This document shows, in pieces, positions 1 through 43,035 of a stretch of 45,593 bases of DNA. Under the pieces are notes generated by a model. That model saw nothing but the letters and a program-made list of their open reading frames with translations, had not been told where the DNA came from and did no database searches. Within the stretch, counting starts at the first letter, position 1. Each line of letters begins with the position of its first letter. A program made the translations under genes and the position numbers. This stretch comes from a virus (Duplodnaviria; Caudoviricetes): the IMG/VR virus record IMGVR_UViG_3300043580_000111, positions 1-45,593 of that record; one strand, given 5' to 3'.

Positions 1-706
1 CAACCCCCTCGCCGGCCTGCCGGAGTATCGCAACACGCTGGCCAGGATGTTGGAGACGGTGAACATCGCCGACATCTCGTCCTACTTCAAAGCCCTGCCG
101 CCCGACTTCGCCCCGCCGCCACAACCACCCCCGCCGCCCAATACCGACCTCATCCTCGCCGACGTGCAGAACAAGAAGACCAACGCCGACATCGAGAACA
201 CCCGGGCGGACCAGCAGACCAAACGCGCCTCTCTCCTCCTCGAGGACGATCGCGAGCGGGACAAATCCGCCCTCGATGCCTGGGTGAAGGCGTGGGTGGC
301 GGGGGCGGCGTCCGGCATGGTCGTCCCCTCTCTCGACGAGTTCAAAGCGGCCATGAAGTCCAACGCCCCGGCGGTTGGACTGCTGTCGGACCTCCCGCCG
401 CCCACCAGCCCCCAACCCCCGGCGGTTGGCGCGCCTCAACAGCAACAGAAGCCGCCTCAAGGCCCCCAGGGCATGCCGATGATGCCCCCTGGTCCTCCCC
501 GGCCGCCCATGATGCCCAACCCCCCTCAACGCCCCATGGCCCCGCCCCCAGGCCCCATCAACCCGGAAGCCGCCAACACCATTCGTCAGTCCCTGGCGAC
601 GGGCCGCTTACCGACAGCGTATGGACAACTGACCCAGCGGGCCTCCGCCTTTCCGCTCAACGGCCCCGGCGGACCGCCTTTACCATCGCCAGGAGGCAAC
701 CCATGA
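1..706 (+). CDS. Portal protein, C-terminal part (5'-truncated, allele A)
   Basis: Near-identical to the C-terminus of the complete portal ORF at 39040-41778 (LETVNIADISSYFKALPPDF..., Pro-rich tail). Confidence 0.9.
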   Translation, partial: NPLAGLPEYRNTLARMLETVNIADISSYFKALPPDFAPPPQPPPPPNTDLILADVQNKKTNADIENTRADQQTKRASLLLEDDRERDKSALDAWVKAWVAGAASGMVVPSLDEFKAAMKSNAPAVGLLSDLPPPTSPQPPAVGAPQQQQKPPQGPQGMPMMPPGPPRPPMMPNPPQRPMAPPPGPINPEAANTIRQSLATGRLPTAYGQLTQRASAFPLNGPGGPPLPSPGGNP

Positions 707-864
707 ACCTCGTCCTCCTCATCATCATCCTGCTGCTGCTCTTCGGCGGCCTCGGCGGCGGGTATTACGCCCACAACATCTACGGCGGCTGGTATGGCCC
801 CGGTATTGGCATCGGCGCGATTCTGCTGATCATCCTGTTGTTCGTTTTACTGCGCGGTTACTGA
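703..864 (+). CDS. Small two-TM membrane protein, DUF3309-like (53 aa)
   Basis: ATG 703 overlaps the portal stop (ATGA), with AGGAGG upstream; MNLVLLIIILLLLFGG...GWYGPGIGIGAILLIILLFVLLRGY resembles DUF3309; near-identical copy at 42610. Confidence 0.75.
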   Translation: MNLVLLIIILLLLFGGLGGGYYAHNIYGGWYGPGIGIGAILLIILLFVLLRGY

Positions 865-866
865 TC

Positions 867-1124
867 ATGGCCGGTATGAAGCCCCCGCGCGGTCTCCTTT
901 CCCCCGTCGTCGATGACGCGGACTGGGAGGAGCGAATGGATGCGAAACGCCCCTACGCCGGGAATACTGATCAGGACATGATCGCTTATCCACCCGGTTA
1001 TCCCGGTTACGGGATGCCGGAAGCACTGGAGGAGAATCTGCCTCAGATGCCGGGATATCCCGTGGAGGGCACGCTTCCGGTCAGTCTCCGAAAGGCCCTC
1101 CGCACCCTCGGGGCCAGAAGATGA
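867..1124 (+). CDS. Hypothetical protein, homolog of 42347-42613
   Basis: Tight operon spacing; shares GLL and YPVEG(T/A)LPV motifs with the allele B protein. Confidence 0.7.
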   Translation: MAGMKPPRGLLSPVVDDADWEERMDAKRPYAGNTDQDMIAYPPGYPGYGMPEALEENLPQMPGYPVEGTLPVSLRKALRTLGARR

Positions 1125-1378
1125 CACTCTCCGCCGAGCGCCTCATCCAGTGCGAGGCGGCGAAACGCTTCATCGCCGATCCGCACTTCAACGCCCTGCT
1201 GGACCGTATCGCCGAGGACGCGACCCGTAACGCGATATTCCTCGAGGACGCCTCCAACCGCGAGGCCAGCCGTCAGTTGATCCTGGCGATCAAACGGGTC
1301 TGGGAGGAACTCCAGGCCGACGCCGAGGCCCCCGAGGCCGACGCGGCGGCGACCCTTCATTCCCAGAGCATGGAGTAA
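1121..1378 (+). CDS. Conserved small phage protein downstream of portal
   Basis: ATGA overlap; protein conserved in allele B (42775-43032) with synonymous changes. Confidence 0.8.
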   Translation: MTLSAERLIQCEAAKRFIADPHFNALLDRIAEDATRNAIFLEDASNREASRQLILAIKRVWEELQADAEAPEADAAATLHSQSME

Positions 1379-1381
1379 GCC

Positions 1382-2458
1382 ATGGCCTCTCTGCTGCTTC
1401 CCGACGACGACCCCTCGGCCCCCGCCCCGCTGCTCCAGTTGCCCGACGAGCGGCCGCCGTCCCTCCAGCCGGACCCGCGCGCCGATGCCCTTGGCCAGAC
1501 CTACCGGGACATCACCGACTACATGGCCCAACAGCACCAAAAGGGGGTCGATGAAGGTTACTGGGCCGGCGGCGGCCTGCTGGAAGGTGGCCATCCCACA
1601 TTGAAGGCGTTCAACAGCGCGGTAGACTCCTATGCCCAGGGACTACAGGCGGGGACACTGAAAGGCCCTGGACCCTTCACGACGTATCAAGGCTCACCGC
1701 ACAAATTCGCGCCGACGCCGAAGAACCCACTGGGTGAGTTCTCCAACACCAAAATTGGCTCCGGCACGGGCGGACAGTCCGAGGGGATGGGTCATTACAC
1801 CGCCGAGAACGAGGCGGTGGCGCAACATTATCGTAAACTGCTGGCTGGTCCTCGCGCCGATTACGTCGGTGAAATCGCGCCGGAGTTCAAAGCCGTCCTG
1901 AAGGCCGAGGATTACCTTGGCTTCGACACGCCAGGGCAGGCCATCACCGCGATGCGGACACATCCCGACTGGGCGACCCGTTGGGACCCCGTGAACCCAG
2001 GCGCCCTCAAGGCGGGCCTGGAGGCCCATGACGCGGCGAAGTATGCCGGCCAGGGGCACATGTATGAAGTGAAGATAAACGCTGATCCCGACCACTATTT
2101 GTCATGGGATACGCCGCTCGGTCGTCAGTCCGATACTGTCATTGATGCGTTCAAACGGAACTTCAATATTCCTTCCGAGGCGTCCTTGCCTCCAAAACTC
2201 GCGGATATGACGGGAAAAGAAATATACCGGGCGATGGAAAGAAGTGTCGGTAAAGAACAGGCGGCGAAAGTCATGCAAGAGAAGTATGGCCTCCCTGGCG
2301 TGAAATACCTCGATGCTTCTTCCCGCGCTCAGGGCGAAGGCACGGAAAACTACGTCACCTTTGATCCCGCTAAAATGGAAATCATCAGACGCTACGGCCT
2401 CGCCGGCCTGATGCTGGGCGGCGGCGGTCTCCTCTCACCCGACAAACAAGAGCAATAA
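1382..2458 (+). CDS. Putative virion-associated protein with an ADP-ribosyltransferase-like (polyvalent-protein type) domain, allele A
   Basis: Motifs TYQGSPHKF...KIGSGTGGQSEGMGHYTAENEAVAQHY...GHMYEVKI...LPGVKYLD...NYVTFDP match the YHGSPH/GxGxYxAE/NYVxFD pattern of ART-like domains in phage polyvalent proteins. Confidence 0.6.
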   Translation: MASLLLPDDDPSAPAPLLQLPDERPPSLQPDPRADALGQTYRDITDYMAQQHQKGVDEGYWAGGGLLEGGHPTLKAFNSAVDSYAQGLQAGTLKGPGPFTTYQGSPHKFAPTPKNPLGEFSNTKIGSGTGGQSEGMGHYTAENEAVAQHYRKLLAGPRADYVGEIAPEFKAVLKAEDYLGFDTPGQAITAMRTHPDWATRWDPVNPGALKAGLEAHDAAKYAGQGHMYEVKINADPDHYLSWDTPLGRQSDTVIDAFKRNFNIPSEASLPPKLADMTGKEIYRAMERSVGKEQAAKVMQEKYGLPGVKYLDASSRAQGEGTENYVTFDPAKMEIIRRYGLAGLMLGGGGLLSPDKQEQ

Positions 2459-2460
2459 CC

Positions 2461-3633
2461 ATGTCCGAATCAACTTCCACCCCCTCCGCCCCCGCCCCTT
2501 CTTCCACGCCCGCCTCCGCGCCAGCCCCCAACGCTGCCCCAACAGCCCCTTCCTCCGATCCCGGCGTATCGCCGCCGGCGAATGACCGCCCGCCGATCTC
2601 CGTCTCCGAGGCGGCACGCCTGCTGTCGCGCCAGCGGCGCGAAGGCGCGCCCCCTCCGCCGCCAGCCACGGCCCCCGAGAGGCGTCCACCGGCGGCGGAA
2701 CTGGCGAAAACACCACCTCCGGCGGTCCCGACGCCCCAAACCACGCCAACACCGGCCCCCTCGCCACTCAGCGCGATGGAAAAGGCCCTTGGCGTGCCTC
2801 CAACGGCCCCTCCATCGCAAGAGTCCACACCTCAGACCCCTCCAGCCTCCGTTGACGGCCCGTTACCTGGTGAAATCGAGATCGAGGGCCGTAAATTGCG
2901 GACCATGGCGGAGTTGCGGAAGTACGCCGCCGATAAATCGGCTGATTACACCGTTAAATCGCAGGAACTGGCGACGGAAAGGCAGGCACTGGCGGCCGAA
3001 CGCCAGCAGATGCGGGCTCAGCAACAGGCGTTGGCCGAAGTCCTTCCTCATATCCAGCCGGAACTGCTGCGCCTTCAGGAAATGGTCCAGAATCCGCCCC
3101 AGCCGCCTGATCCATCCCTGATCGAGACCAATCAGCAGCAGTATCTGCGCGAGCGCGCCCAGTATGAGCACGCCCTGGCCGAGCAGCAGCGGCTGTTCAG
3201 TCTCAATAACCTCCAGAGCGCCGCTCAGCAGCGGGCGCTGGAGCAGCAGGTCGCCGTCGCCAATGAGCAACTGGCGAAGGAACTGCCGTTCTGGGCCGAC
3301 CCCCAGCAGCGGCTGGAGGCGCAGCAGCAGATCGTCGAATGGGCGACATCCAAGGGTGGTTTCAGTCGTGACGAACTACGTGGTCTGTCATCACCACATC
3401 ATCTCAAGACCATGATGAAGGCGGCGATGTTCGATCGCTGGGTGGAGGGCGCGAAAACCTCCGCGCCGCCGTCATCCTCTGTCCCCGCGCGTGGCGTGGC
3501 CCCGCCGCCCGCGCCCTCGGAGCGCATCGCCGCCGCCACCGAGGCGTTCCAGGCCCGCCCCGATGCCCGTAGTGGCGCGGCCCTGATCGCGGCGCGCCGG
3601 GCGGCGATGAATGGTAATGGCTCCGCGCGTTAA
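2461..3633 (+). CDS. Capsid scaffolding protein
   Basis: Directly upstream of the major capsid gene; Pro-rich N-terminus, ADYTVKSQELA motif and Q/E-rich coiled coil typical of podovirus scaffolds. Confidence 0.8.
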   Translation: MSESTSTPSAPAPSSTPASAPAPNAAPTAPSSDPGVSPPANDRPPISVSEAARLLSRQRREGAPPPPPATAPERRPPAAELAKTPPPAVPTPQTTPTPAPSPLSAMEKALGVPPTAPPSQESTPQTPPASVDGPLPGEIEIEGRKLRTMAELRKYAADKSADYTVKSQELATERQALAAERQQMRAQQQALAEVLPHIQPELLRLQEMVQNPPQPPDPSLIETNQQQYLRERAQYEHALAEQQRLFSLNNLQSAAQQRALEQQVAVANEQLAKELPFWADPQQRLEAQQQIVEWATSKGGFSRDELRGLSSPHHLKTMMKAAMFDRWVEGAKTSAPPSSSVPARGVAPPPAPSERIAAATEAFQARPDARSGAALIAARRAAMNGNGSAR

Positions 3634-3670: not shown

Positions 3671-3868
3671 CGTCGCTCAATGGAGTGCGAAAGCACCCAC
3701 CGGAGAGTGGGCCGTGCCGTCGTCAGAGGCCCTTCCCGCCCCGTGGAGTGAGCGATCACCCACCACGCCAGGCGTGTCGAGACCAACGCGAAACCAACCT
3801 CTCATCATCGGTTTCACCGCGCGAGCGGCTCCACGTGGAGCGTCGCGCCAGCGTTGGAGACATGCGAC
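3671..3868 (+). ncRNA. Candidate structured leader RNA upstream of the major capsid gene
   Basis: tcgctca/tgagcga closing stem, gtgc-GAAA-gcac tetraloop hairpin, gaaacc/ggtttc stem and perfect palindrome gctccacgtggagc within a 235-nt intergenic gap. Confidence 0.35.
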
Positions 3869-4852
3869 ATGGCCTTAGGAACAATGGGCGCTGCGCCTGC
3901 GAACACGTATTTAGAGCCGGCCGCCATTGGGGTGAAGGAAGATCTCCGCGACGTGATCTTCCAGATCGATCCCGACGAGACACCTCTGGTCTCGGCGATC
4001 CCCAGTGTGGAAGCGAAACAAATCCTCACCGAGTGGGTCGTCCAGGAACTTGGGGTCGTGGCCGATAACGCCCAGCCCGAGGGCTTCACCGCCAGTATGC
4101 AGGCGGTCACCAAGCCCGTCCGCATGAACAACATCGCCCAGATCCTCGTCCGCACGGTGGGCGTGTCCAACACGCTGCGCTCGGTCGATATGGTCGGCGG
4201 CGAGGACGAATATGACAGGCAGCTGATCCTGCGCGGGATGGAAGTGAAGCGCGATCTCGAGTTCGCCATCACGTCGCCGCTGGTCCGCACCATCACCGAT
4301 CCGCGTCACATGAGTGGTCTGCCCTGTTATTGCGCCAACGGCTCCAGAGGCACTGGCGCGGGTGTGATGCCGGTCGGCGATGGGTCCAACGCGGGCACGC
4401 CGGGCACCAAGCGCGACCTCACGCTGGCGATGCTCGACGCCGCCGTGCAGCAGGCGTGGCAGGCCGGCGGCAAGCCGACGCTCGGCATCATGTCCGGTAA
4501 CATCAAGGCGTATTTCGCTACCCTCAGCCAGGGTGGCACGGGCAACGCGGTGGTGGCGCAAAACATACAAAATGTTACGTCATCGCAAGAAGTAACCATC
4601 ATGGGCGCGGTCGATGTCTATCGCACCAACTTCGGAACGATCCAGCTGGCGCCTGATCGTTTCTGTCCCGCCAACCAGATCCTGCTGGTCTCCACCGACT
4701 ACGTGGAACTGGCGCCACTACCTGGACGCGATGTCATAGAGCTTGATTTCGCCAAGACCGGAGACAACACCCAGGGCGCCGTTTTGTTCGAGGGATCTCT
4801 TCGTCCGACCGCGCCAAAAGCGCACGCCTGGATCGCGGATCTCAACCAGTAA
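3869..4852 (+). CDS. Major capsid protein (DUF5309/SU10-like, HK97 fold)
   Basis: GVKEDLRDVIFQIDPDETPL, EW..QEL, RDLEFA, VDVYRTNFG and AKTGD motifs; about 327 aa; GGAG upstream of ATG 3869 (alternative ATG 3884). Confidence 0.88.
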   Translation: MALGTMGAAPANTYLEPAAIGVKEDLRDVIFQIDPDETPLVSAIPSVEAKQILTEWVVQELGVVADNAQPEGFTASMQAVTKPVRMNNIAQILVRTVGVSNTLRSVDMVGGEDEYDRQLILRGMEVKRDLEFAITSPLVRTITDPRHMSGLPCYCANGSRGTGAGVMPVGDGSNAGTPGTKRDLTLAMLDAAVQQAWQAGGKPTLGIMSGNIKAYFATLSQGGTGNAVVAQNIQNVTSSQEVTIMGAVDVYRTNFGTIQLAPDRFCPANQILLVSTDYVELAPLPGRDVIELDFAKTGDNTQGAVLFEGSLRPTAPKAHAWIADLNQ

Positions 4853-5160
4853 TGAGCGCCCTTCTCTACGAGAGCTTTGACCCTGTCACGCTCCGCCACA
4901 CCGAGGTGGAGCGGGAGGACGGCGGGCTGTTGTTCGTCCACAGCCAGGATACCAAAGCGATCACCGAGAGCGCCAAGACGATCGCCGCGAACTTCGACCC
5001 CCACGTCAGGCGCGATACCGTCCACGTCGCCCGCATCCCGCTGGTGATCTGGAACCGCCTGAAGAAACTGGGGATTACCAGTGATGAGAAGGCGCTGAAC
5101 GCCTGGTTGAACGACCCGGACAACAGCGTCTTCCGAACCGATGATCGGAGCACCCTCTGA
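4852..5160 (+). CDS. Conserved hypothetical phage protein after capsid
   Basis: TAATG coupling; HVARIP...WLNDPDNSVFRT motif often seen after capsid genes of this type. Confidence 0.75.
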   Translation: MSALLYESFDPVTLRHTEVEREDGGLLFVHSQDTKAITESAKTIAANFDPHVRRDTVHVARIPLVIWNRLKKLGITSDEKALNAWLNDPDNSVFRTDDRSTL

Positions 5161-5161
5161 A

Positions 5162-5779
5162 ATGGCCAGCGGAACCTCGACCACCACACCACCCCCGGCG
5201 CCGATGCGGCGCACACCGGGGATCGGCCCTGACGCCGCCACCACTCCCAACATGAACCGCGGCAGCATCATGCCGCCCGGCAGCACGGCGGGCGTCGGCA
5301 CGGTGCCGCTCGCGGGCATCGGGATGCTGCCCGGCACCGAGGACGGCATGACCGAGATCAAACCCCTCGGCCCGTTGAAACCCGTCCTGGTCGATGGCTT
5401 CGACCGCTCCCTCCTGGGCAAGCTCTACCCTGATGCCGATGACCCGGTGGCCGCCGCGATGGCGGCGGCGGAGGAGCGGATCCGGGTGGGGACGATCGCC
5501 GAGGAGTCTCTCCACCAGCCTTTCCACACCGCCGATGGCGTCCAGGCGCCAGGCAATCCGGTGTTCGATCCGACCCCGCCCGCGGACGCGACCGCGCGTG
5601 GCGCGGGTCAACATCGCCCGGCCCCCGGCGAGAACGACCCGCCGGTCTCGCGCGAGGGCGTCACTCACCAGGCGGGCGTGCATCCCGCCCCGCAGCAGTC
5701 CACCTCGACCACGCCACCACGCGGCCAGCACGACGATGACGACGACAAGAAGCACGACAAGAAGAACGACAAGAAGTAG
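5162..5779 (+). CDS. Pro-rich, probably disordered hypothetical protein
   Basis: Fills the gap between neighbours exactly; charged tail DDDDDKKHDKKNDKK. Confidence 0.65.
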   Translation: MASGTSTTTPPPAPMRRTPGIGPDAATTPNMNRGSIMPPGSTAGVGTVPLAGIGMLPGTEDGMTEIKPLGPLKPVLVDGFDRSLLGKLYPDADDPVAAAMAAAEERIRVGTIAEESLHQPFHTADGVQAPGNPVFDPTPPADATARGAGQHRPAPGENDPPVSREGVTHQAGVHPAPQQSTSTTPPRGQHDDDDDKKHDKKNDKK

Positions 5780-6448
5780 GTGGCTTCTTATCAGCAACTC
5801 ATCGACGATGTTCAGAACTGGCTGAATCGAAGAGATTTGGCCAGCCTGATCCCTGGCTGGGTGCTGATGGTCGAAACGGAAATCGCCGAGACCTTGCGGG
5901 CGCGCTGCATGGTCACCTTCGGTGAGCAGGACATCGACGCCGCCGAGATCACGCTTCCCGATGACTTCGCCCAGATGGAATCGATCAGGGACGCCACCTC
6001 GGGCGAGCTGCTGAAGCTGAAAGACGAGTGGAGCGGTCACTGGGTGGGGCGACAGTCCAGCGCCTGGCAAGAGGGCGCGGTCGTAGGGGCTGTTGGACAG
6101 GTCTGCACCGCGTATCGGCTGAAGGGGAACTGCATCGAATTCCTGCCTCACCCGATCATCCCCAATCCGCCTGACCCGACGCATCTTTGGCAGCAGGTCA
6201 TCATGGGCTGGTACGCGAAGCCAAAGCACCTGGATCTGCCGTCCGACACCAACACGGTCCTGGAAGCCCTCTACGGCGTCTACCTGTTCGGTCTTTGTAA
6301 GTATGGCGCCATGTTCGAACTGGACGACGATCGCGCGGCCCAGGCGGATGCTCAATTCCAGCAGGTGGTGACGCGGGCCAACCTCTGGAAACAACAATCG
6401 GACTACGGTGGAGCCCCGCTTAGGTCTGAACTGGTATCGTTTGGATGA
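5780..6448 (+). CDS. Head-tail adaptor protein
   Basis: SYQQLIDDVQNWLNRRDL..IPGWVLMVETEI...LPDDF...VYLFGL pattern of podovirus adaptors; fitting position. Confidence 0.75.
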   Translation: MASYQQLIDDVQNWLNRRDLASLIPGWVLMVETEIAETLRARCMVTFGEQDIDAAEITLPDDFAQMESIRDATSGELLKLKDEWSGHWVGRQSSAWQEGAVVGAVGQVCTAYRLKGNCIEFLPHPIIPNPPDPTHLWQQVIMGWYAKPKHLDLPSDTNTVLEALYGVYLFGLCKYGAMFELDDDRAAQADAQFQQVVTRANLWKQQSDYGGAPLRSELVSFG

Positions 6449-7854
6449 GCTTCGTCGTTCATCGCGTCTCTAAAAGCGCCGCGCGTTACACCGACGCGGG
6501 GGGTAGGGAGAAATGCGGCTACTGCCGCTTCTTTATCGCCCCTCGCACCTGCGGCAAGGTCATCGGCCCGGTCAGTCCCCAGGGTTGGTGCAAGTATTTC
6601 AGCCGTCAGGTAGCTCAACAATACAGCGGCGCCGGCATCACGGGCGGCGGCGGCCCCCCTGGCGCCACGCTGTCGCTCGATTTCATGTCATCCGGCAACA
6701 TGCCGCCCGGCATCACGTTCACCCGCGCGAGCAGCGCGACATACACCGACGCCTCCGGCGTGATCCAGACGGCGGCGGCCAATCAGCCTCGCTGGGATTA
6801 CGCGGGCGGATCGTTACGTGGGCTGCTGATCGAGGAAGCGCGGACGAACCTGATCGTCAGCAGCGTGGACTTTAGCGGGTTCGGTTGGTCTTTGGTCGCG
6901 GCGACGATCGCGGCGGGGCAAGCGGGCGCACCGGACGGCACATCGACGTTTACCCGTCTGATCGAGACCTCGGCCAATTCCGTGCATTACGTCGGCATTC
7001 CCATAGCGACCCTCGCGGCATCCACGCTTTACACGTTGTCGGTTTACGCGAAAGCGCAGCAGAGTCGTTATTTACAACTGGCGGTCAGAGACGGCGGCGG
7101 CACGAATGGTGCGTTCGCGACGTTCGACGTGCTGGGTGGAACGATCACGGGGCCGCTCACCGCCATCGCCGGCGGCGTGATCGGCACGGCGAGTATCCAA
7201 CCTGTCGGCAACGGTGTGTTTCGTTGTTCCATGGCGACAACGGTCGGGGCGCTGACGACGGGTAGTGTGCTGCTGCTGCTTTCCAATACGCCCACTCCGG
7301 CGTTCGCGCCCGGCTACGTCGGCAACGCCTCGAACGGGTTGCAGATATGGGGGGCGCAACTCGAGCAGGGGTCGGTCGTTTCGACCTACACCCCAACGGG
7401 TGGAACGGCCGCGACGCGAGCGGCCGAGGTCTGCTATCTGCCCATCGGGCCGTGGTATAATTCCGCTGCTTATTCGCTGTTCGCCGAGTGCGTGGCGGGG
7501 GCCAACATCAACAGCATGATCGCCGGTATTGGCGACGCCACGCCCGCCAACGGCTTTTACATGATCGGCAATGGCGCGCTGCGGTTCGGTGTCGGTCTGG
7601 CCGCCAGTCCCGCCATGACGCCCGGAGCGGTCAGCAAGATTTGCGGCACTGTCACGCCGGCGCAGGTGCGTTGCTGCATCAACGGCGCGGCGATCGGCAC
7701 GGCGGGCAGCGCGGCGGCACAGACAACGGCGACGCGCCTGTCCATTGGGGGTTCGCCATGGGCGGGCGATGCTCAGATTAACGCGCACCTGCGCCGCATC
7801 GGATTTTGGACGCGCGTGTTGTCCGACACTGAAATTCAGCAGGTGACGACATGA
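6445..7854 (+). CDS. Virion head-spike/fibre protein with an N-terminal HiPIP-like 4-Cys domain and lectin (LamG/ConA-like) domains
   Basis: Residues 10-52 KSAARYTD...CGYCRFF...TCGKVIGPVSPQGWCKYF; Gly linker; TFTRASSATY...PRWDY...GLLIEEARTNL fibre motif; QIWGAQLEQG; C-terminal HLRRIGFWTRVLSDTEIQ typical of LamG-like ends. Confidence 0.8.
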   Translation: MSFVVHRVSKSAARYTDAGGREKCGYCRFFIAPRTCGKVIGPVSPQGWCKYFSRQVAQQYSGAGITGGGGPPGATLSLDFMSSGNMPPGITFTRASSATYTDASGVIQTAAANQPRWDYAGGSLRGLLIEEARTNLIVSSVDFSGFGWSLVAATIAAGQAGAPDGTSTFTRLIETSANSVHYVGIPIATLAASTLYTLSVYAKAQQSRYLQLAVRDGGGTNGAFATFDVLGGTITGPLTAIAGGVIGTASIQPVGNGVFRCSMATTVGALTTGSVLLLLSNTPTPAFAPGYVGNASNGLQIWGAQLEQGSVVSTYTPTGGTAATRAAEVCYLPIGPWYNSAAYSLFAECVAGANINSMIAGIGDATPANGFYMIGNGALRFGVGLAASPAMTPGAVSKICGTVTPAQVRCCINGAAIGTAGSAAAQTTATRLSIGGSPWAGDAQINAHLRRIGFWTRVLSDTEIQQVTT

Positions 7855-7859
7855 CCGGA

Positions 7860-8411
7860 TCATTCTTGGCGATGAAAGGGGCTAAACTCTCCGTGGATGC
7901 GGGTCGAGGCTTCGCGATAGGCGGCGTGGGCTTCCTCAGCGGTATCGAATGTGCCGAGAAAACGTTTTCCCCCCGCGTGATCTCGGATCATCGCAATAAA
8001 CCGCCGGTTGCGGCTTTTGGTTACGCCAACAAGACCGGAAACTCCGACTTTCTTAATCATATTCCTGTTGTTCTGGAGCATGGTTACCGACCGTATATTT
8101 TCCAACGTGTTGTTCGTTCTGTCGCGATCTTTGTGGTCGATCCATTCAGGATCGATCCCATGGTGCATTTTGTAAATAATGCGGGAGACATAAAAACGGC
8201 GGTTTTGAAGGCATACCTGCCAGTAGCCTTTTACAGTCAACCGTCCAGCAATGTGACCCGCCCACTTCCCGTTCCACGACATGAAATTTTGGAGGCTTGT
8301 GAAGTGCTCGCGCGGCCGACGACGCCAGCGAAGTTCGCCGGTAGCGGATTCATATTCAAAGCACTGGTGGAGATACTCCGCCGATGGCAGGGTAATCAAA
8401 GCCTTGGGCAT
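7860..8411 (-). CDS. HNH endonuclease with C-terminal AP2 DNA-binding domain (putative homing endonuclease)
   Basis: IDHKDRDRTNNTLENIR HNH motif; SGLVGV...FLGTFDTAEEAHAAY AP2 motif; lower GC; antisense within the structural operon. Confidence 0.9.
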   Translation of the reverse strand: MPKALITLPSAEYLHQCFEYESATGELRWRRRPREHFTSLQNFMSWNGKWAGHIAGRLTVKGYWQVCLQNRRFYVSRIIYKMHHGIDPEWIDHKDRDRTNNTLENIRSVTMLQNNRNMIKKVGVSGLVGVTKSRNRRFIAMIRDHAGGKRFLGTFDTAEEAHAAYREASTRIHGEFSPFHRQE

Positions 8412-8486: not shown

Positions 8487-9698
8487 ATGCCTCCAGGTTA
8501 TCCATGGCAGATCGGCGACCCGCTGTTCGCCGCCGATCTCAACGCCGCCATCGCCGGTGCGGGTCATGGCGGTCTTAATGTCCGGGATTATGGCGCCGTG
8601 GGCGATGGTGTCGCCAATGACACGTTGGCGTTCAACAACGCGGTCGGCGCCGCCTACGACACGAAATCCAACCTCGTGGTCATTCCGTCCGGTTTATACC
8701 GGATCGACCCGCTCATTGTGTCCCCCGGCGTGGTGATCAAGGGCATGGTGCCGGGGCCACTGGACCCGCCGATCGGCGGACCGTCGTTTCTGACCCAACC
8801 GATCGGCGCGACGCTGCTGGTCAATTCACACAGTGCGCCGCTCATACAGTTGAACACCAGCAACGGTCTGTTCGATGTCATGATCTACGACCCGTCGCAG
8901 GTGGCGCCAACGGCGACGGCGCCGATCGTGACGCCTCCAATGGTGCTCATGCAATCACCCAGCCGGATGAGCGGCGTGACGCTGATCAACGCTTATGTCG
9001 GCGTCAAGGTGAACAGCGGACGTTGTATCGTCGAGAATTGTTACATTGGTGCATATAAAACCTGCGTTGATGTCGATCAGGCTCAGGACGTGACGTATTT
9101 CAACAACGTCTGGTGCAGCATCTTCTATGAGACCGCGTTCGGAATATTTCCTTTCTCCAATATGGACAACTGGGTTCAGAACAATGGTGGCGTCGCGTTT
9201 AAGTTTGGTCGCGCCGACGCGGTGTTCATGACGAATTGCGGTTGCTTCCTCAAATGGGCGGGTTTGTATTGCGCCGATGGCGCGGTGGACAGTTTGCCGA
9301 GTTACGGGTTGAGCGTGAATTTCGACGCCGATCTCGTTGTTTATGGCGCGGTGATTTATTCGACCAACGCCGCCGTTGGGTGGCAGTTGCTCAACTTCCA
9401 GGCCCTGCCGACCGGTGGCAGTTCTACTGTCGCCGCGACGCCGCTGTTCATGCCGACAGGCGGATCGTCGCCGCCGATCGTGCACTGGTCGGGCGGCACG
9501 GTAGGTCTGGGCGTGCCGAATAACTGGACGGTCTCGCAACAGCCTGTCGTCAACGCGGGACAACTCTCGGTGCGCGGCGTCAGCCAGCTGCCCGACCGGA
9601 TGCTGTCCGGGGTTGTTTTATCGAACCTCCCCACGAGCTCCGCCGGTCTTGTGGCGGGACAGGTATGGCGCAACGGCACCGTGTTGAACGTCATATGA
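8487..9698 (+). CDS. Tailspike/depolymerase, pectate-lyase-3-type beta-helix
   Basis: LNVRDYGAVGDGVANDTLAF...IPSGLY motif; LPTSSAGLVAGQVWRNG C-terminal fibre motif. Confidence 0.85.
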   Translation: MPPGYPWQIGDPLFAADLNAAIAGAGHGGLNVRDYGAVGDGVANDTLAFNNAVGAAYDTKSNLVVIPSGLYRIDPLIVSPGVVIKGMVPGPLDPPIGGPSFLTQPIGATLLVNSHSAPLIQLNTSNGLFDVMIYDPSQVAPTATAPIVTPPMVLMQSPSRMSGVTLINAYVGVKVNSGRCIVENCYIGAYKTCVDVDQAQDVTYFNNVWCSIFYETAFGIFPFSNMDNWVQNNGGVAFKFGRADAVFMTNCGCFLKWAGLYCADGAVDSLPSYGLSVNFDADLVVYGAVIYSTNAAVGWQLLNFQALPTGGSSTVAATPLFMPTGGSSPPIVHWSGGTVGLGVPNNWTVSQQPVVNAGQLSVRGVSQLPDRMLSGVVLSNLPTSSAGLVAGQVWRNGTVLNVI

Positions 9699-10210: not shown

Positions 10211-11592
10211 TGGCCACGACCACACCCGTCCTCGGTCTCTTCAAGCCGGTCATCGGCGCGGACGATGACGACTGGGGAGCGTTCTGGAACAGCAACGCCG
10301 ACACGCTCGACGCCGCTTTGGTGGGTGGCGGGCCGTTCCTGCCGCTGACGGGCGGGACGGTGGACCACGCCAACGCCACCAACGGTTTGTTCGCCGGTAT
10401 CGCCACCATCGACATGCGACAGGGTTATGTCGGCGGCGTCGAACATCGCACGTGGGTCGGTGTCTCCGATAACGGCATGATGACTTATTATGATGGGGCG
10501 TCGCTTAGTGCGTTCTACGCTGTTCCTGGCTTTCCGCTCGCCGCCGTGGCCGCCGTTCGGACATCGGATCAATCCGGCGCGGGAACGGCGAACATCGGGT
10601 TCGCTTCTTACGCGGTAACGGATGGCGCGTCCGCCAGCCACGGTTCCTCGTGGAGTTTCTACGGATCGAACAGGAGAATGGCGGGTGCCGGCACGACCAT
10701 CGGCATGGAGTTGTCGATGGGTAATCTCGCGCCGACGGTCGAACTGAACCCGCATTTGACCGGCGCCCCCGGCAGCACGATAGGTCTGTGGCTGTCGAGC
10801 GGAGCGGAAGCATACGAAGCGGGGTTGACGGTTTATCCCGGCAGTTCCGCGCTCAATGTCGTCAGCAACGGCTCGACCTGGGGCAAGGGTCTGGTGTTTG
10901 GCGCCAACGCGCTCACCCCGGCGCCGGGAACCGGCGTGATGAAGGCAATCCAGCTACCAGAGAAGGGCGAGATCCAGTGGGTGTTTAACGCGGCCGGGGC
11001 GCGAGGCGGGTTTATTCGCAGCGACGCTACCGCGACGAGCCTGGGGATATTGTTTCACTCCGGTGACTTCACCATCGTTAACGACGCCGAGACCGTCCGT
11101 TTACTTGAGGTAACCACGAGCGGAGCCAGTGTCACCGGCACGTTTACCGCGTCGGGCAACGGTCTGTTTCAGAGCGGTTTTCAGGTCTATGGCGCGGCGT
11201 TGTTCTCCAGCGCCGCGCAGGCGCAAGGCGGGCTTTCGTTCCCCACCGCACCCGCCAGTGCAACCGATTTAAGTAAGCACCTGGACCTCGCTTTCGGCAC
11301 GCACGGGATGAACGTTTATAATGGTGTGCTGAATTTCAATGTCGGCGCCAGTTATTACTTCCAGTTTTTGGTCGGCGGGACCGCCGCCGTCTATGTTGAT
11401 GCGAATGCCCTGACCGCCGCCAAGGCACTACAGGTCACCCCTGGCGGCCCGACATGGACAACCGGCAGTGCGGTTCCATCCAGCACACAACCAGTCGGTT
11501 CGATCTATTCACGCGTGTCCACCTGGGCGGCGGGTGCGACGCTTTATGTCAGTAAAGGCGCGGGCGCATGGACGCCGGTGGCTGGCGTATGA
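10210..11592 (+). CDS. Tail fibre protein
   Basis: TAATG coupling; N-terminal TPVLGLFKPVIGADDDDWGAFWNSNADTLD anchor; FLPLTGGT motif; PVGSIYSR...LYV C-terminus. Confidence 0.8.
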   Translation: MATTTPVLGLFKPVIGADDDDWGAFWNSNADTLDAALVGGGPFLPLTGGTVDHANATNGLFAGIATIDMRQGYVGGVEHRTWVGVSDNGMMTYYDGASLSAFYAVPGFPLAAVAAVRTSDQSGAGTANIGFASYAVTDGASASHGSSWSFYGSNRRMAGAGTTIGMELSMGNLAPTVELNPHLTGAPGSTIGLWLSSGAEAYEAGLTVYPGSSALNVVSNGSTWGKGLVFGANALTPAPGTGVMKAIQLPEKGEIQWVFNAAGARGGFIRSDATATSLGILFHSGDFTIVNDAETVRLLEVTTSGASVTGTFTASGNGLFQSGFQVYGAALFSSAAQAQGGLSFPTAPASATDLSKHLDLAFGTHGMNVYNGVLNFNVGASYYFQFLVGGTAAVYVDANALTAAKALQVTPGGPTWTTGSAVPSSTQPVGSIYSRVSTWAAGATLYVSKGAGAWTPVAGV

Positions 11593-11828: not shown

Positions 11829-12143
11829 ATGCCATCGACAGCCGGCAGCATGACCCAGACACCGACCGGAAACCCGCAATGGCGCAATTGCAACGGCGTC
11901 AACGTGCAGGGCTTCCAGGCCCCGGTCGCGCCGCAGACCAACCGTCCCCACACCGGCACTTCCTACGGCACCTACAGGGACTGGGTGCTCAGAATGGGCT
12001 ACAACCGCACCAAGGGCATCGCGGGATGGCGGGTCATGCTGCCGACCGGCGCGGGGTGGTATGTCGCGGTGACCGATGACAGCTCCGACGCGCCGACCGG
12101 GGTGACCAACACCGCGAACAATCCACCGGCGGGAGTTAAATAA
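11829..12143 (+). CDS. Hypothetical protein
   Basis: AGGAG RBS; TAATG coupling to the next gene. Confidence 0.65.
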   Translation: MPSTAGSMTQTPTGNPQWRNCNGVNVQGFQAPVAPQTNRPHTGTSYGTYRDWVLRMGYNRTKGIAGWRVMLPTGAGWYVAVTDDSSDAPTGVTNTANNPPAGVK

Positions 12144-13219
12144 TGGCCGACGCCTACACCCCGAAACTCGCGCTGATCCAGCCGGAGGTTGGCGCATCTC
12201 GTGACACCTGGGGAACAAAATGGAATCAGAACGCCGACATCCTCGACCAGTTCGTCAGCCAGTTTTGTCAGGTCGGGATCATCGCTGATTTCGCCGGCCC
12301 GACCGCGCCATCCGGCTGGCTCATTTGCGACGGCCGTAACGTATCAAGAACGACATACAGTAAACTGTTCGCGGTCATCGGCGTCTACTGGGGTAGCGGC
12401 GATGGCTCCACGACGTTCCGCCTGCCCAACACGGCGGGCCGTTCGCTGCTCGGTCCCGGCACGGTGACGGACCAGGGCGGCCTCGCCTACACATTCGGCT
12501 TCACCCAGATGCAGGGCTTCGTCTACAGCCCGATCACGCAGACGAACCTGCCCGCCTATAATCTCGTGACCGACAGCCAGGGCAGCCACAATCATACCGC
12601 CGCGACAGCGGGCGGCGGCGCGCATGGGCATACAATGGATCAGCAGGGCGTCCATACCCATGGCAACTTCACCGCCAACAACAACGTCGATCACACCCAT
12701 TCCGGCATCACTGATGCGCAAGGCGTCCATACGCACGGTTATATCCAAACCCAACACAATCCCGGTGAGTGGGTGGCCGGGTCGTCAGCCGCTCAGATCA
12801 CCATCACCGCTCAGCAGACCGACCCGGCGGGTAGCCACACGCACAATGTTTCGGTCGGCGGCGCCAGCACGGCGCATTCACATCAGATTTACGCGGACGG
12901 CACGCACTACCATAACGTCAACTCCGCCCCCAATCACACGCACCCGATCTACGATGACGGCGTCCACCAGCACAACGTCAACCTCGGCGGCGGCGGCGTG
13001 CCGCTCAATGTGCTGAACCCGTTCCTGGTCGTGACGAAGATCATCTACGCCGGCCAGGAAGCGGCCATCGTCACCGCCGCCGACATCACACCGGCCGCGA
13101 CATCGACCGACACCCACGCCGAGATCGAGAACCTGCGTGAGGAGATCGCCGCGCTACGGGCCTTGTTCGAGACACCGCGCGCCAGGATGCTGTCGGCGCC
13201 GTCACGCGGCCCGCATTAA
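12143..13219 (+). CDS. Tail fibre with tail-collar domain and His-rich (HxH) needle
   Basis: VGIIADFAG..APSGWLICDG..VSRTTYSKLFAVIG...GDGSTTFRLP collar motif; ten HxH motifs; NPFLVVTKII closing strand. Confidence 0.9.
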   Translation: MADAYTPKLALIQPEVGASRDTWGTKWNQNADILDQFVSQFCQVGIIADFAGPTAPSGWLICDGRNVSRTTYSKLFAVIGVYWGSGDGSTTFRLPNTAGRSLLGPGTVTDQGGLAYTFGFTQMQGFVYSPITQTNLPAYNLVTDSQGSHNHTAATAGGGAHGHTMDQQGVHTHGNFTANNNVDHTHSGITDAQGVHTHGYIQTQHNPGEWVAGSSAAQITITAQQTDPAGSHTHNVSVGGASTAHSHQIYADGTHYHNVNSAPNHTHPIYDDGVHQHNVNLGGGGVPLNVLNPFLVVTKIIYAGQEAAIVTAADITPAATSTDTHAEIENLREEIAALRALFETPRARMLSAPSRGPH

Positions 13220-21749: not shown

Positions 21750-22517
21750 TCAGGCGGCGCTCTGGCCCTCACTACCACGACGGCGGCGCTTCACCATGCC
21801 GAGTCCAAGCAGCCCCGTACCAAGCACCGCCAGAGAGGCGGGCTCCGGCACGTCAGCTGTCACCGAGGGGACCAGGAAGAAGCTCTCAGCGCCGTCGCTG
21901 GCGTTCGACCATCTCGCGTAAAACTCGATCTGGCTGTTGGGCGACAGGTCGTTGCGGTCGATGTTGAAGCCGCTCAACACATAGTCAGGGAAGCCGGTGC
22001 CGTTGTTGTTCGTCGGCAGCGGCGTTCCGTTCGCTGGGTTGTAATCGGCGAGGATCGTCTTGTTGACGACATCGAGCACGACGAAGCGTTGCAGCACTTC
22101 AGGACCGGCGCCCGTGGCCGTGTTCACGTCGATCCCGACATTCAGTTGCCCATTCAAATCGAGCTGTGAGATCAAGAACGCACGCAGGAACGAGACAAGA
22201 TACGGCGTGCCTTGCACGTCGTTGTCGAGGTTCGCTCCGACCGTGGCCGATGAGAAGTCGCTGAACGCGACCTGGCTACCGCCCTGTTTGTAGTTGTTGT
22301 AACCGAAGCCCGCCGGCTGTTGGGGTTGCTGCGTGCCACAGATCAAACAAGGCGTGTTCAACGGCTGGTTGCCGGGAGGCGGGACCGCGATCAGCGACAG
22401 CGCCGAGGTGTTGGCATTGGCGGTGTAGCCCAGCGTAGAGATGATGTCAGCGCGAGCCGTTGGCTGGAAAAACATCGCCCCGGTGACGATGGCCGTGGTC
22501 ATCAATAAGCGTTTCAT
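21750..22517 (-). CDS. PEP-CTERM sorting-domain protein with signal peptide
   Basis: N-terminal MKRLLMTTAIVTGAMFFQPTARA signal peptide; C-terminal VPEPASLAVLGTGLLGLGMVKRRRR; AAGGA RBS. Confidence 0.93.
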   Translation of the reverse strand: MKRLLMTTAIVTGAMFFQPTARADIISTLGYTANANTSALSLIAVPPPGNQPLNTPCLICGTQQPQQPAGFGYNNYKQGGSQVAFSDFSSATVGANLDNDVQGTPYLVSFLRAFLISQLDLNGQLNVGIDVNTATGAGPEVLQRFVVLDVVNKTILADYNPANGTPLPTNNNGTGFPDYVLSGFNIDRNDLSPNSQIEFYARWSNASDGAESFFLVPSVTADVPEPASLAVLGTGLLGLGMVKRRRRGSEGQSAA

Positions 22518-22546
22518 CGTGAGTTTCCTTTTGTTGACGTGGAAGT

Positions 22547-23701
22547 TTAGTTCGACCACCGGTCGCCTTTAACGATACCTAAAACGGTGGTGCTGGTCAG
22601 TTCGGTATTCAGAACGGCGAGGGTCTTCGACAAGGTAGCCAGTTTGACATGGATCGCCGCCCAGACCTTGAAGTCGGCGAGAACGTCGGCATGGTACTGG
22701 TCCAGTGGCGAGAGGGTCGGAGGCGGCGGTGGTAGCTCTGTTGGTGGCGGTGTGGGTATCGATGGCGGCGGTGCTGCCGGTGGTGCTGGCGGGGACGGCG
22801 GTGGTTGTTGTCCAAGGAATTGTATCGATGCCAGATCCAAAGCGGGGCGTGCCGCCAGAACCGTGCCGCCCGACATCAACCCAAATACCGTGTTACCAGA
22901 AAACCCAACAGGATAACCGCCAGGGTTAAGTAAGAGATAACCTCCACCACTATCGTTAACAATCGTATTGTCTCTGATCGACACGGTTCTTCCGGCATTG
23001 CTCGCCCCTTCCTCGCCGTAAGCGAGTATGGCCGGGTTTTGCGTCGCGGCGCCCTGCTCAATGATGTTGCCCGCTATCGTGGCGTCGCCGCCGTTCGGCA
23101 GATCGATGCTGTACGACGAGGAAGAATCATTATCGAAAATCCGGTTGCCGGTGATGACGTTATTCACGGCGCGGGACTTGATTTCATGCCCGACGCTGGT
23201 GTCGTGGACATAGCTGTTGGTAAGCGTGAAAGTCGCGATCTGGCCGATGTAGAGCCCGTGCGTATGGCCGTTGCCGCCGACGCCATTGAACGCGATCTCG
23301 GAGTTGTCGATGCTGATCGACCCGGAGGCGTCGGCGGCCCCCAGCAGCCCGTCCTGGTTGTCGTGCAGGTAGACGTTATCGAGCGTCAGGCTCCCGCCCT
23401 GGTATCGCACCGCCGCGCCGTTGGCATCCGGCACGGTGACGCCGGAGATGTCGAAGCCGCTGATGGTGACGTTGCCCTGCTCGGTGATCATCGCCTTGCC
23501 GTCCGGCGGTTGCCAGCCATTGGCGGTGGTCAGCTTCACCCAGCCGCCCACGGCGACGAGGTTCAGGTCGTGGGTGATCGACAGCCACGTGTTGGTCCAG
23601 GCGCCGGCCTGGACTTCGATGGTATCGCCGGATGTGGAGGCGTCGATCGCCGCCTGGATCGAGCCGCCCGCCGCCACGTTGATGATCATCGGTCCCGCCA
23701 T
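22547..23701 (-). CDS. Right-handed parallel beta-helix protein (polysaccharide lyase-like) with a Pro-rich linker
   Basis: SIQAAIDA...GDTIEV, NGAAVRY, HDNQDGLL, HTHGLYIG, GHEIKSRA and YSIDLPNGG motifs with Asn ladders. Confidence 0.8.
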   Translation of the reverse strand: MAGPMIINVAAGGSIQAAIDASTSGDTIEVQAGAWTNTWLSITHDLNLVAVGGWVKLTTANGWQPPDGKAMITEQGNVTISGFDISGVTVPDANGAAVRYQGGSLTLDNVYLHDNQDGLLGAADASGSISIDNSEIAFNGVGGNGHTHGLYIGQIATFTLTNSYVHDTSVGHEIKSRAVNNVITGNRIFDNDSSSSYSIDLPNGGDATIAGNIIEQGAATQNPAILAYGEEGASNAGRTVSIRDNTIVNDSGGGYLLLNPGGYPVGFSGNTVFGLMSGGTVLAARPALDLASIQFLGQQPPPSPPAPPAAPPPSIPTPPPTELPPPPPTLSPLDQYHADVLADFKVWAAIHVKLATLSKTLAVLNTELTSTTVLGIVKGDRWSN

Positions 23702-28408: not shown

Positions 28409-29742
28409 GAGGTCTCTTCCAAAAGTTGAGTGACGATCCGCCGCTTGCGGCGGACGATGTCGGCGACGCGGGCGTCGATGGAGTCCGCGACGGTCAGGAT
28501 GGATATCCGCACGGGGCGGGCCTGGCCGGCGCGATACAGGCGCGCGACGGCCTGATCGATCGAGGCGCTGGTCCAGTCGGTCTCCAGGAAGATGGCGCGG
28601 CGGGCGCTCTGGAGGTTGAGACCGAACCCGGCCACCCTGACGGAGGCCACGAGGACTTTGACGACGCCCGCGTTGAACCCGGCGACGGCGCCCTCGCGAA
28701 GAGTATGGGCGGTTTCGCCCATCAGGAGGCGGGCGCCGAGAGACTGGCAGGCATCATTGATGGCCTGGAGGGCCGCGACGTGGACGCCGAAGAGGACGAT
28801 CCTGTCCGCGCCGCCCTCGATCTCACTCTTGATGAGATCGACCGCCGCCCTGCTCTTGGCCAGGGCGAGGACGCGGCGGGTGCTGGCGAGCGGCAACAAC
28901 ATCGCGTTGAGCCGCTGCCACCCCGCCTCGTCGCTACCTTCCAGCTGGGTCAGGACAACATTCAGCTCATTCCGTTGTTGCTCTGTCATCGTGGCCTCGA
29001 TCGCGCGGCGATCGGCGGGACTGATCTCGACGGGCAAGGTGTCCACGGTCAGCGGCGGCAGGTCGGTCACATCGGACAGTTTCACGCGGCTGGCGCATTT
29101 CGAGAGGATGGCGCGGAGCTCTTCAGTATTACGGGCACCGACGATGATCGGGCCAAATGTCTTTTGGACAGTGACGCAAAAGTGGTTGAGAAACTGCTGT
29201 TTCTGTACCTTGCCGGGGATAAGGTTGGGGAAAAGGCGGGACAGATGTGGATGTAATTCGTCAGGGCTATTGAGCACGGGCGTCCCCGTCGCGATCCAGA
29301 CCCGGCTGGAACGAGTATAAAGAGCCCCTTTCGAGTAAATAGTGGCGCCGTAGAAGGCTCTTGTTCTCGCCGCGGCGCCGTGGCCGAGAGCATGACCCTC
29401 GTCGCAGACGATGCTCTCCCAGTAAAGACGGAATAACTGTTTCCAGATCTCGACCCTTCGCATCAGGTCGTAACTGACAATCACGATATCGGCGGTGTCA
29501 TCGACGATCGATTTGCCGGAGGTGATCCGCTGGACGCGGACGCCAAGACGCCAGGCGGCGATGTCGGCCAGGGTCTGCGGGATCAGGACGGCGTGGGTGA
29601 TCCACAGTTGCCGCCCGCCCACGGTCGCGCCGGCGCGAATGAGCGCGGCGGTTTTTCCAACGCCAGGCTCCCATAATAGGAGGAAATGCCCTTTGGCCAT
29701 ATCGGGTATGACGGCCGCCTGGTGCTTCCAAAGTTTCACCAC
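28405..29742 (-). CDS. SNF2-like superfamily 2 helicase
   Basis: EPGVGKT, CDEGH, ATGTP, GLNLQ and QAVARLYRAGQ motifs. Confidence 0.92.
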   Translation of the reverse strand: MVKLWKHQAAVIPDMAKGHFLLLWEPGVGKTAALIRAGATVGGRQLWITHAVLIPQTLADIAAWRLGVRVQRITSGKSIVDDTADIVIVSYDLMRRVEIWKQLFRLYWESIVCDEGHALGHGAAARTRAFYGATIYSKGALYTRSSRVWIATGTPVLNSPDELHPHLSRLFPNLIPGKVQKQQFLNHFCVTVQKTFGPIIVGARNTEELRAILSKCASRVKLSDVTDLPPLTVDTLPVEISPADRRAIEATMTEQQRNELNVVLTQLEGSDEAGWQRLNAMLLPLASTRRVLALAKSRAAVDLIKSEIEGGADRIVLFGVHVAALQAINDACQSLGARLLMGETAHTLREGAVAGFNAGVVKVLVASVRVAGFGLNLQSARRAIFLETDWTSASIDQAVARLYRAGQARPVRISILTVADSIDARVADIVRRKRRIVTQLLEETS

Positions 29743-41778: not shown

Positions 41779-41953
41779 TCTTCCACTTCCGACCGTGAGA
41801 CAGTGGCAACGGGATTGCCGCGAGGCCTCCCAAGACCAGGCCACGCCGAAATGCCCGGGTTGCGGCCGCCGCCTCGGCGTCCGCGAAGCGATGTTCAACG
41901 AGAGCGGCACAGATCAATGGATGTGCGACAATGCCTGCTGCGACGGACAGTGA
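41771..41953 (+). CDS. Small Zn-finger protein (allele B only)
   Basis: GGAGG RBS; CPGC...MCDNACC. Confidence 0.6.
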   Translation: MDNLPLPTVRQWQRDCREASQDQATPKCPGCGRRLGVREAMFNESGTDQWMCDNACCDGQ

Positions 41954-42165: not shown

Positions 42166-42350
42166 CAACAGACAAATCCCCAGACCCAACGAGCCGGCGG
42201 CCTCTCGTCATCGAGGTGCTGCTGGATGGCGAAGTCATCGCCACGGGAACGTGCCCGCCGGAAATACGCGACCTGTCCGCGTCGATCGGGATGCCTTTGG
42301 TGCCGGCGATGCTCCGGCGGATCGCCGATAAGTGGGAGGCCGCCCAGTGA
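42162..42350 (+). CDS. Small hypothetical protein (allele B only)
   Basis: GTGA couplings on both sides. Confidence 0.55.
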   Translation: MTTDKSPDPTSRRPLVIEVLLDGEVIATGTCPPEIRDLSASIGMPLVPAMLRRIADKWEAAQ

Positions 42351-42771: not shown

Positions 42772-42774
42772 ACA

Positions 42775-43032: not shown

Positions 43033-43035
43033 CCC

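Follow-up and report, generated by a model that had tools for sequence, protein, structure and literature searches.

The HiPIPs, or high-potential iron-sulfur proteins, are known as exported electron carriers of bacteria, and the small subunits of the glycyl-radical enzymes are HiPIP-like [4Fe-4S] proteins of the cytoplasm whose role is structural or regulatory. The lambda gpL family is said to represent an Fe-S-bearing tail hub protein. The HiPIP that is most relevant here is PioC of Rhodopseudomonas palustris TIE-1 (PDB 6xyv), which is reported to bind its cluster through Cys22/25/34/47 and to connect an outer-membrane iron oxidase with the reaction centre; HiPIPs are described as cycling at +50 to +500 mV (PMC7462912). 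Iron-sulfur clusters have also been reported in virions, in the hub proteins of RcGTA and R4C (PMC7296036, PMC10276861) and in the giant-virus protein GciS (PMC12499515). In the hub, which is an essential baseplate protein of siphophages, two stretches that are apart in the sequence make up the Fe-S domain, and this domain is not reported as HiPIP-like in the available text of the RcGTA and R4C papers.

The best-described relative of the fibre is Rcc01080, the head spike fibre of RcGTA (PDB 6tb9; NF048003; PHROG 5939). Rcc01080 is described as a single flexible chain, of which N-terminal residues 2-10 are held on the capsid and the remainder binds capsule (PMC7296036, PMC10218006); a short Leu-Gly repeat anchors it in a base protein that forms a pentamer (PMC7296036). 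A literature search covering listings, the starts of abstracts and few subscription papers found no paper on phage HiPIPs or on a HiPIP-fibre fusion, and the available main text of a survey of polyvalent proteins contains no mention of HiPIP, iron-sulfur or Fe-S (PMC5512222). Both parts of the protein described below are of known kinds; the union of a HiPIP-like domain with a predicted outward-facing fibre appears to be undescribed.

The fusion gene and its reading frame

The window, which is the whole 45,593-nucleotide stretch analysed, is a 45.6-kb virus record with a podophage-like genome; its capsid, portal and adaptor genes are of SU10 type, and it also has fibre genes and encodes a terminase and a family A polymerase. 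The first-pass annotation had described a domain at residues 10-52 containing Cys24/27/36/49 and an upstream Tyr (residue 15 in the translation), joined in frame by a Gly linker to a lectin-like fibre body and coupled to the head-tail adaptor gene. Translation confirms these elements, all in one 469-aa frame (Table 1), and the ATG of the fusion gene overlaps the stop of the adaptor gene at 5780-6448. The pattern C24-x2-C27-x8-C36-x12-C49 is real and not a chance occurrence, given the match of residues 9-53 to PioC. Rather than a classical tail fibre, the body combines a relative of the Rcc01080 head spike fibre with a LamG lectin. The gene stands among fibre genes, and in all 29 tabulated loci an adaptor gene lies upstream of it, either directly or behind an insert.

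Table 1. Features of the HiPIP-fibre locus, with positions in the window.
Feature	Position	Strand	Evidence
Gene of the 469-aa fusion protein (HiPIP-like domain, Gly/Pro linker and a lectin body of head-spike-fibre type)	6445..7854	+	Translation, family and structure matches; uninterrupted in contigs from three studies
HiPIP-like four-Cys domain, residues 9-53 (Cys24, 27, 36, 49; Tyr15; Trp48)	6469..6603	+	PioC E 1.7e-7; Iro model E 7.9e-10, below cut-off; pLDDT 87; 1isu Z 7.2
Gly/Pro-rich linker, residues 62-73	6628..6663	+	Sequence; variable across relatives
Residues 87-365, with homology to the RcGTA head spike fibre Rcc01080; predicted carbohydrate-binding beta-sandwich	6703..7539	+	6tb9 E 8.2e-37; NF048003; model
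NF048003 (RcGTA-type head spike fibre) domain, residues 128-327 of the fusion protein	within 6703..7539	+	136 bits against a cut-off of 36
C-terminal concanavalin A / LamG-like domain, match residues 381-465	7585..7839	+	PF13385 E 1.4e-8, above cut-off; fold matches LamG, CBM40
SU10-type head-tail adaptor gene; candidate docking partner	5780..6448	+	PF24175 E 2.8e-17
SU10-type major capsid protein; alternative candidate docking partner	3854..4852	+	PF17236 E 2.1e-65

Domain queries fetched 128 viral loci, which comprise 63 distinct DNA copies; 62 of the 63 are fused in frame, and the remaining copy is cut by the end of its contig. No insertion or deletion is listed in four sequencing runs, and given the near-universal fusion among the distinct copies, a frameshift or an assembly artefact is rejected. 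One contig, from a run that is possibly the source sample, matches 5845-7900 without difference or gap, and contigs of two other studies cover 6548/6549-6739 exactly, including the end of the domain, the linker and the start of the body. A single contig of a further run joins across 6610-6748, skipping that interval, at a lowered likeness of 88, and most likely derives from a relative whose linker differs. Recent capture from a host by chance is not supported, since the GC3 of the domain (0.76) equals that of its neighbours (0.75-0.78) and the fusion is common to phages whose capsids are 60-100% identical.

The N-terminal domain

The four cysteines, Tyr15 and Trp48 are invariant in 36/36 full-length proteins aligned, and at the aromatic positions that HiPIPs keep, Tyr is retained in 91, Phe in 70 and Trp in 89 of 91 aligned rows. 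The best solved match of the domain is PioC, with which it shares the spacing of the cluster ligands, and its likeness to PioC and to the short HiPIPs (1isu, 3h31) extends from the Cys x2, x8, x12 pattern to the preceding Tyr, the terminal Trp-Cys and the predicted fold. With a profile built from 91 relatives, 13 PDB sequences match at an E value up to 1, and 12 of them are PioC or other HiPIPs (best E 1.1e-16); no chain from Rhodopila, the type named in the first-pass annotation, is present among the structure-sequence matches of the domain or of this profile.

From the alignment of these relatives the isolated domain was modelled with a mean pLDDT of 87, a confidence that depended on the inclusion of bacterial HiPIPs; in the full-length model, residues 1-68 are unfolded, with pLDDT under 50. 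In a fold search of 48,161 chains, every one of the 7 that reach a Z of 5 is a HiPIP, with 1isu as the best match (rmsd 1.2 over 48 residues), although Z values under 8 can reflect a common arrangement. The next 4 chains are glycyl-radical-enzyme subunits, which are HiPIP-like [4Fe-4S] proteins as well. The small subunit of benzylsuccinate synthase (PDB 4pkf) is a weak fold match (Z 3.5) with 9% identity, and it belongs to a metabolic enzyme complex with no phage link. With Foldseek, all 16 rows shown for the domain model are HiPIPs (best E 2.9e-3), but the E values of all PDB matches of this small model lie above 0.001, and the Atlas's own model of the domain aligns to a HiPIP cluster with a TM of 0.82.

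The first-pass annotation had proposed checking the assignment by fold prediction and with the HiPIP HMM. The fold agrees, as the model matches HiPIPs best, whereas the Pfam HIPIP model (PF01355) scores 13.5 bits against a gathering cut-off of 22. The Iro model (NF041615, an equivalog) likewise gives 38.9 bits for the domain and 32.7 bits for the full protein against a whole-protein cut-off of 100, and the domain is detected neither by Pfam at E 0.01 nor by PHROGs. Thus, unlike PioC and the short HiPIPs, the phage domain lies below the Pfam and NCBIfam cut-offs; it also sits on a 400-aa lectin body and is strongly basic (net charge of residues 1-55, +8). The reported lack of a Tat signal is borne out by an in-house twin-arginine rule, for which 0/84 fused proteins are positive; the same rule passes 22/24 Tat-labelled HiPIPs, although a pattern much like it had served to label these controls. 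No hydrophobic stretch precedes the domain, which begins at residue 9, and this sets it apart from the Tat-exported, periplasmic HiPIPs. By predicted fold and ligands the domain is HiPIP-like, yet by export it is not a member of the HiPIPs. Its sequence and model suggest that it likely binds a [4Fe-4S] cluster.

The fibre body and its N-terminal slot

In addition to the match to Rcc01080, a shorter part of the body matches baseplate proteins of phages E217 and Pa193. Because this type of module is used on both heads and tails, placement on the head or the neck cannot be told from sequence. As aligned, the HiPIP-like domain occupies the slot of the N-terminal anchor of Rcc01080, and in both proteins this slot is followed by lectin-like beta-sandwich domains. 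However, where Rcc01080 has its Leu-Gly repeat, the fusion protein has no such repeat and instead has what is predicted to be a folded four-Cys domain, and a LamG domain has been added. For the window ORFs scanned, no family corresponding to the base pentamer that holds Rcc01080 in RcGTA was reported. The RcGTA and R4C hub proteins resemble the fusion protein in having a four-Cys Fe-S site in a virion structural protein, both predicted in the case of the fusion, but the fusion has a compact HiPIP-type domain on an accessory podophage fibre, and no gpL/hub tail-tip family or chain is among the matches listed for the fusion protein or its model.

When proteins were selected by their body (the best 120 of 1,904), 15 carried the HiPIP-like domain, and the rest had other N-termini or were cut short. 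The other N-termini include short stubs, Gly-rich repeats, beta repeats, and a twin-arginine-like signal followed by a two-Cys peptide; 10 of the 120 pass the in-house twin-arginine rule. A twin-arginine-like N-terminus joined to the body is found in 44 of the 71 loci examined, in other soil phages, and membership of the body family is therefore no proof of a location in the virion. The variety of N-termini supports a description of the slot as a swappable address module on one lectin body. In one locus (L150), the same stem is found on a gp80-type fibre N-terminus, and among relatives the body varies in length from one to two lectin units.

Distribution and selection within the clade

A search with residues 1-60 returned 36 proteins among 38 candidates of similar length, and all 36 carry the body. 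Loci were also fetched with the capsid gene, to avoid selecting on the domain, giving 68 loci, near-copies included, of which 15 end too early. Among the 53 informative loci, the domain is present in 34 (33 with a body match, one cut off) and absent in 19; 18 of the latter also lack the body, and the other has a weak LamG match. A locus without the fusion gene despite a 99.7% identical capsid (L169) indicates that the gene is accessory. In many non-carriers, the adaptor is followed by a gp80-like fibre gene.

Pairwise identities over 39 distinct loci give Spearman coefficients for the domain of 0.56 with the capsid, 0.59 with the adaptor and 0.12 with the body, and in 48 pairs whose capsids share at least 97% identity the domain keeps a median of 95%, compared with 90% for the adaptor and 30% for a fixed body window; the pairs are non-independent, and the alignment of the body window is rough. 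Gene linkage would yield such correlations too, since the recombination lies behind the linker. The domain is under purifying selection, with a mean pS of 0.38 against a mean pN of 0.056 among 12 close relatives.

Several residues distinguish the domain in this clade. Arg28 is present in 32/32 fibre-clade representatives, compared with about 30% of 47 stand-alone and 24 Tat forms, and Arg38, Pro42 and Ser53 are kept at 81-94% among the same 32. The net charge of the fibre-clade domains is +3 to +7 in 32/32, with a mean of 4.7 against 0.5 in stand-alone and 1.8 in Tat forms. On the basis of these residues, the fibre-clade domain has a predicted basic patch that is conserved and its own. Few columns of the adaptor, the capsid and a 102-aa protein separate carriers from non-carriers, and these are confounded by kinship.

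HiPIP-like modules in other phages

A profile search of 1.84 billion representatives gave 963 matches. The best 150, together with the results of the residue 1-60 search and with labels corrected by hand, amount to 163 distinct domains: 68 fibre fusions, 53 short signal-less proteins, 27 Tat-bearing proteins, 12 other fusions and 3 Tat-like fragments. Among the other fusions are portals of the HI1409 type and a head-maturation protease that also has a NUDIX domain, and a viral structure library contains the HiPIP-like fold in S-SRM01, protease, XkdF, ClpP/SppA, ParB and other proteins. One of these, S-SRM01 gp061 (A0A879R316), has already been automatically named for the fold in UniProt. A profile of the stand-alone form found 33 viral loci, comprising 24 short ORFs, 5 occurrences in a minor-head-like protein of roughly 925 aa, 3 fibre fusions and 1 fusion of 243 aa. 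The free proteins are 55-90 aa long, and a terminase or portal is close by in 8 of the 21 stand-alone loci scanned (87 of 131 ORFs covered). Matches in cultured phages are confined to three records (S-SRM01 twice and one uncultured jumbo phage), and both phages have stand-alone-type ORFs. The HiPIP-like domain is therefore a widespread phage module, signal-less, that occurs both alone and fused. The first-pass annotation knew of no described case, which still holds for the fibre fusion in the literature searched, but the domain itself is not unique to it.

In a 77-row tree, the 22 Tat forms make up one side of a branch (support 95) that separates them from all signal-less forms. A fibre clade and a fibre-plus-Tat clade (p 0.94 for the latter) are both compatible with an AU test; the domain trees rest on 46-47 columns, their branches are mostly unresolved, and they give no direction of origin. 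The nearest Atlas clusters of the domain are 90-100% viral. The signal-less modules of other phages (S-SRM01 gp061 and the portal, prohead-protease, ClpP/SppA and XkdF fusions) have the same fold and no export signal and are nearest to the fibre version in both tree and Atlas. They are, however, free mini-proteins or parts of head-assembly or enzyme proteins, whereas the fibre version is found on a predicted outward-facing lectin fibre and has the basic patch.

Possible roles of the domain

Three roles had been offered for the domain at first, namely a structural anchor, a redox or oxygen sensor and a mimic of host proteins; the anchor is the likeliest of the three, and host mimicry finds little support in the tree or the viral Atlas clusters. 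The reading preferred here, which we hold tentatively and would place just short of probable, is that the domain binds a [4Fe-4S] cluster and serves as a rigid anchor that fixes an accessory lectin fibre to the particle. The host Fe-S assembly machinery would load the cluster in the cytoplasm, as suggested by the lack of a detectable export signal, and the small domain would fold around it. Once folded, the strongly basic domain could dock on a conserved virion protein, either the neighbouring adaptor or the capsid; adaptors are reported to dock fibres in many podophages (PMC13730344). The flexible linker would then allow the exchangeable lectin domains to reach host surface polysaccharide, and this contact may be a first, reversible attachment like that of Rcc01080 on RcGTA. 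The cluster would be mainly structural, and any redox role secondary.

An anchor is consistent with the location of the domain in the slot that anchors Rcc01080 to the capsid, with the swappability of that slot across body-selected proteins, with a domain identity that tracks the core virion genes and not its own body, with the clade-specific basic surface and with purifying selection. An Fe-S cluster within the anchor is supported by the agreement of fold, ligands and kept aromatic residues with the [4Fe-4S] HiPIPs, and by the precedent of the RcGTA and R4C hub proteins. The anchor is weakened by the occurrence of the same domain free or on portals, proteases and enzymes, where it resembles cargo with a function of its own, by the lack of an adaptor or capsid feature that clearly separates carriers from non-carriers, and by the unfolded N-terminus of the full-length model. 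The signal-peptide versions of the body weaken the assumption that the protein is part of the virion.

If the domain is such an anchor, a HiPIP fold made in the cytoplasm as a virion part would extend phage Fe-S use beyond the gpL/hub family, and fibre assembly in a widespread soil phage clade would be tied to the host Fe-S supply, with iron on particle surfaces. The domain, at 55 residues, is easy to express, which makes the function of phage HiPIP modules directly testable, and a single lectin body with several interchangeable N-terminal address modules offers a natural comparison.

Alternatively, the domain could be a redox-active [4Fe-4S] 3+/2+ centre on the virion, acting as a sacrificial oxidant sink or as a redox/pH switch controlling the release of the fibre or adsorption where soil oxygen changes, with any anchoring incidental. 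The recurrence of the stand-alone gene near terminase or portal genes and the fusions to HI1409-type portals, head-maturation protease, ClpP/SppA and XkdF suggest a function common across positions, and both the retained aromatic shell and the potentials at which HiPIPs cycle would suit this role. However, a Pfam scan of 58 translations revealed neither a redox partner nor a gene for Fe-S assembly, the clade-specific residues form a predicted basic patch suited to docking, and the gene is absent from over a third of the informative relatives, which makes a redox centre unlikely, if worth serious consideration. A bolder form, in which soil podophages display the HiPIP-type [4Fe-4S] centre outside the particle at the root of the lectin fibre, and its oxidation state controls fibre docking or release and so tunes adsorption to soil redox, is distinctly doubtful; phage HiPIP modules would then form a large, undescribed family, with this domain as its outward-facing member.

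It is also conceivable, but rather unlikely, that the protein is not a virion component and is instead a soluble lectin, made late and set free at lysis, that acts as a decoy, binds biofilm or capsule, or helps progeny; it would then be the cytoplasmic counterpart of the signal-peptide versions. Those versions are common on the same body, and in the sampled loci their genes lie between terminase and portal or follow the head genes of a different group of phages, in some cases preceded by a small gene that is signal-peptide-like. On the signal-like bodies themselves NCBIfam found no Tat-signal model, and one of two controls gave weak Tat-substrate matches only. The HiPIP-fibre proteins, by contrast, uniformly fail the twin-arginine rule, their gene overlaps the adaptor stop among fibre genes, and the best-studied homologues (Rcc01080 and the baseplate proteins of E217 and Pa193) are virion parts.

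A HiPIP-derived fold that binds zinc, or forms disulfides after lysis, and serves as a plain structural anchor is improbable. Four-Cys sites are reported often to take Zn or Fe-S interchangeably, with assignment from sequence being unreliable (PMC12499515), and the Pfam HIPIP score lies below its cut-off; nonetheless, the spacing is identical to that of PioC, the HiPIP aromatic positions are conserved, and the best fold matches are all HiPIPs, followed by the glycyl-radical-enzyme subunits. Finally, despite the role of PioC at the outer membrane and a published proposal that fibre iron aids infection (10.1101/674382), a host mimic or iron bait (a 'Ferrojan horse') binding a host outer-membrane electron conduit or iron receptor at adsorption is very improbable, as receptor-binding parts vary with host, yet no part of the protein varies less than the domain, which groups with phage forms that lack a signal and not with Tat HiPIPs (with the AU result given above) and lies at the end that is virion-proximal in Rcc01080.

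Occurrence and host

Half or more of the sampled words are present in 6 of the 21 listed sequencing runs, and all 6 are soil metagenomes, from three studies; no RNA run is among the 21. In cultured phages, the best capsid match is 39.5%. A scan of GTDB genomes, which finds close relatives only, gave a single 9-residue match among 45 candidate stretches that was taken as spurious. Weak hints of a host are provided by a PEP-CTERM gene in the genome and by a beta-helix gene, for which the best of 8 plasmid records is from Roseomonas, at 48.5%.

Fibre genes and their N-terminal modules

The short N-terminal modules of three other fibre genes in the window reappear in relatives on unrelated bodies, and this reuse shows anchor-and-body shuffling to be general in the window's phage clade.

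In viral loci L228-L273, L280 and L286, and in proteins P0188, P0190, P0198, P0202, P0206, P0212 and P0226, the lectin body of the fusion protein follows a different N-terminus, made up of a twin-arginine-like signal with a two-Cys peptide. These genes lie in late regions of a different soil phage group, are sometimes preceded by a small signal-peptide-like gene (phrog_22789), and possibly encode exported fibre-type proteins. A second type of signal-like, two-Cys N-terminus is found on the lectin bodies of L262, L263, L295 and L297, which are located within or beside SU10-like structural modules.

HiPIP-like modules on other phage proteins

HiPIP-like domains are not confined to fibres. In L084-L088, one is contained in a minor-head-like protein of ~925 aa (phrog_4660), encoded downstream of a nozzle-like gene. 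Synechococcus phage S-SRM01 gp061 (L055:5977-6180) is a stand-alone HiPIP-like protein of 67 aa, with a short N-terminal leader that we take to resemble the T4 capsid-targeting sequence. In P0090, P0096 and P0162, the module is fused to a recurring, uncharacterised domain of 110-160 aa that has no match in PHROG.

Other genes of the window

The Pro-rich ORF is present in 15 of 28 loci carrying the HiPIP-like domain vs 1 of 19 non-carrier loci, a bias that may reflect kinship. The right-handed beta-helix gene is found too in phages with signal-bearing lectin bodies.

Additional genes of the window
Feature	Position	Strand	Remarks
Pro-rich ORF	5141-5779		212 aa; no family match
HNH endonuclease	7860-8411	-	directly 3' of fusion gene, inserted in opposite orientation
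Other fibre genes	8487-9698, 10216-11592, 12143-13219		short N-terminal modules
PEP-CTERM protein	21753-22559	-	replication arm; cell-surface-type
Right-handed beta-helix protein	22550-23701	-	replication arm; cell-surface-type
HNH endonuclease, second	29736-30269	-	

Ends of the record

Positions 1-3220 and 41076-45593 contain the same genes, from the portal end to the scaffold. Because these copies are only 83-92% identical, the record probably combines two related phages in one sequence, or comes from a recombinant, rather than having a clean terminal repeat. In a parallel to these unlike ends, two differing versions of the fusion gene (L006 and L008) are found on one IMG/VR contig.
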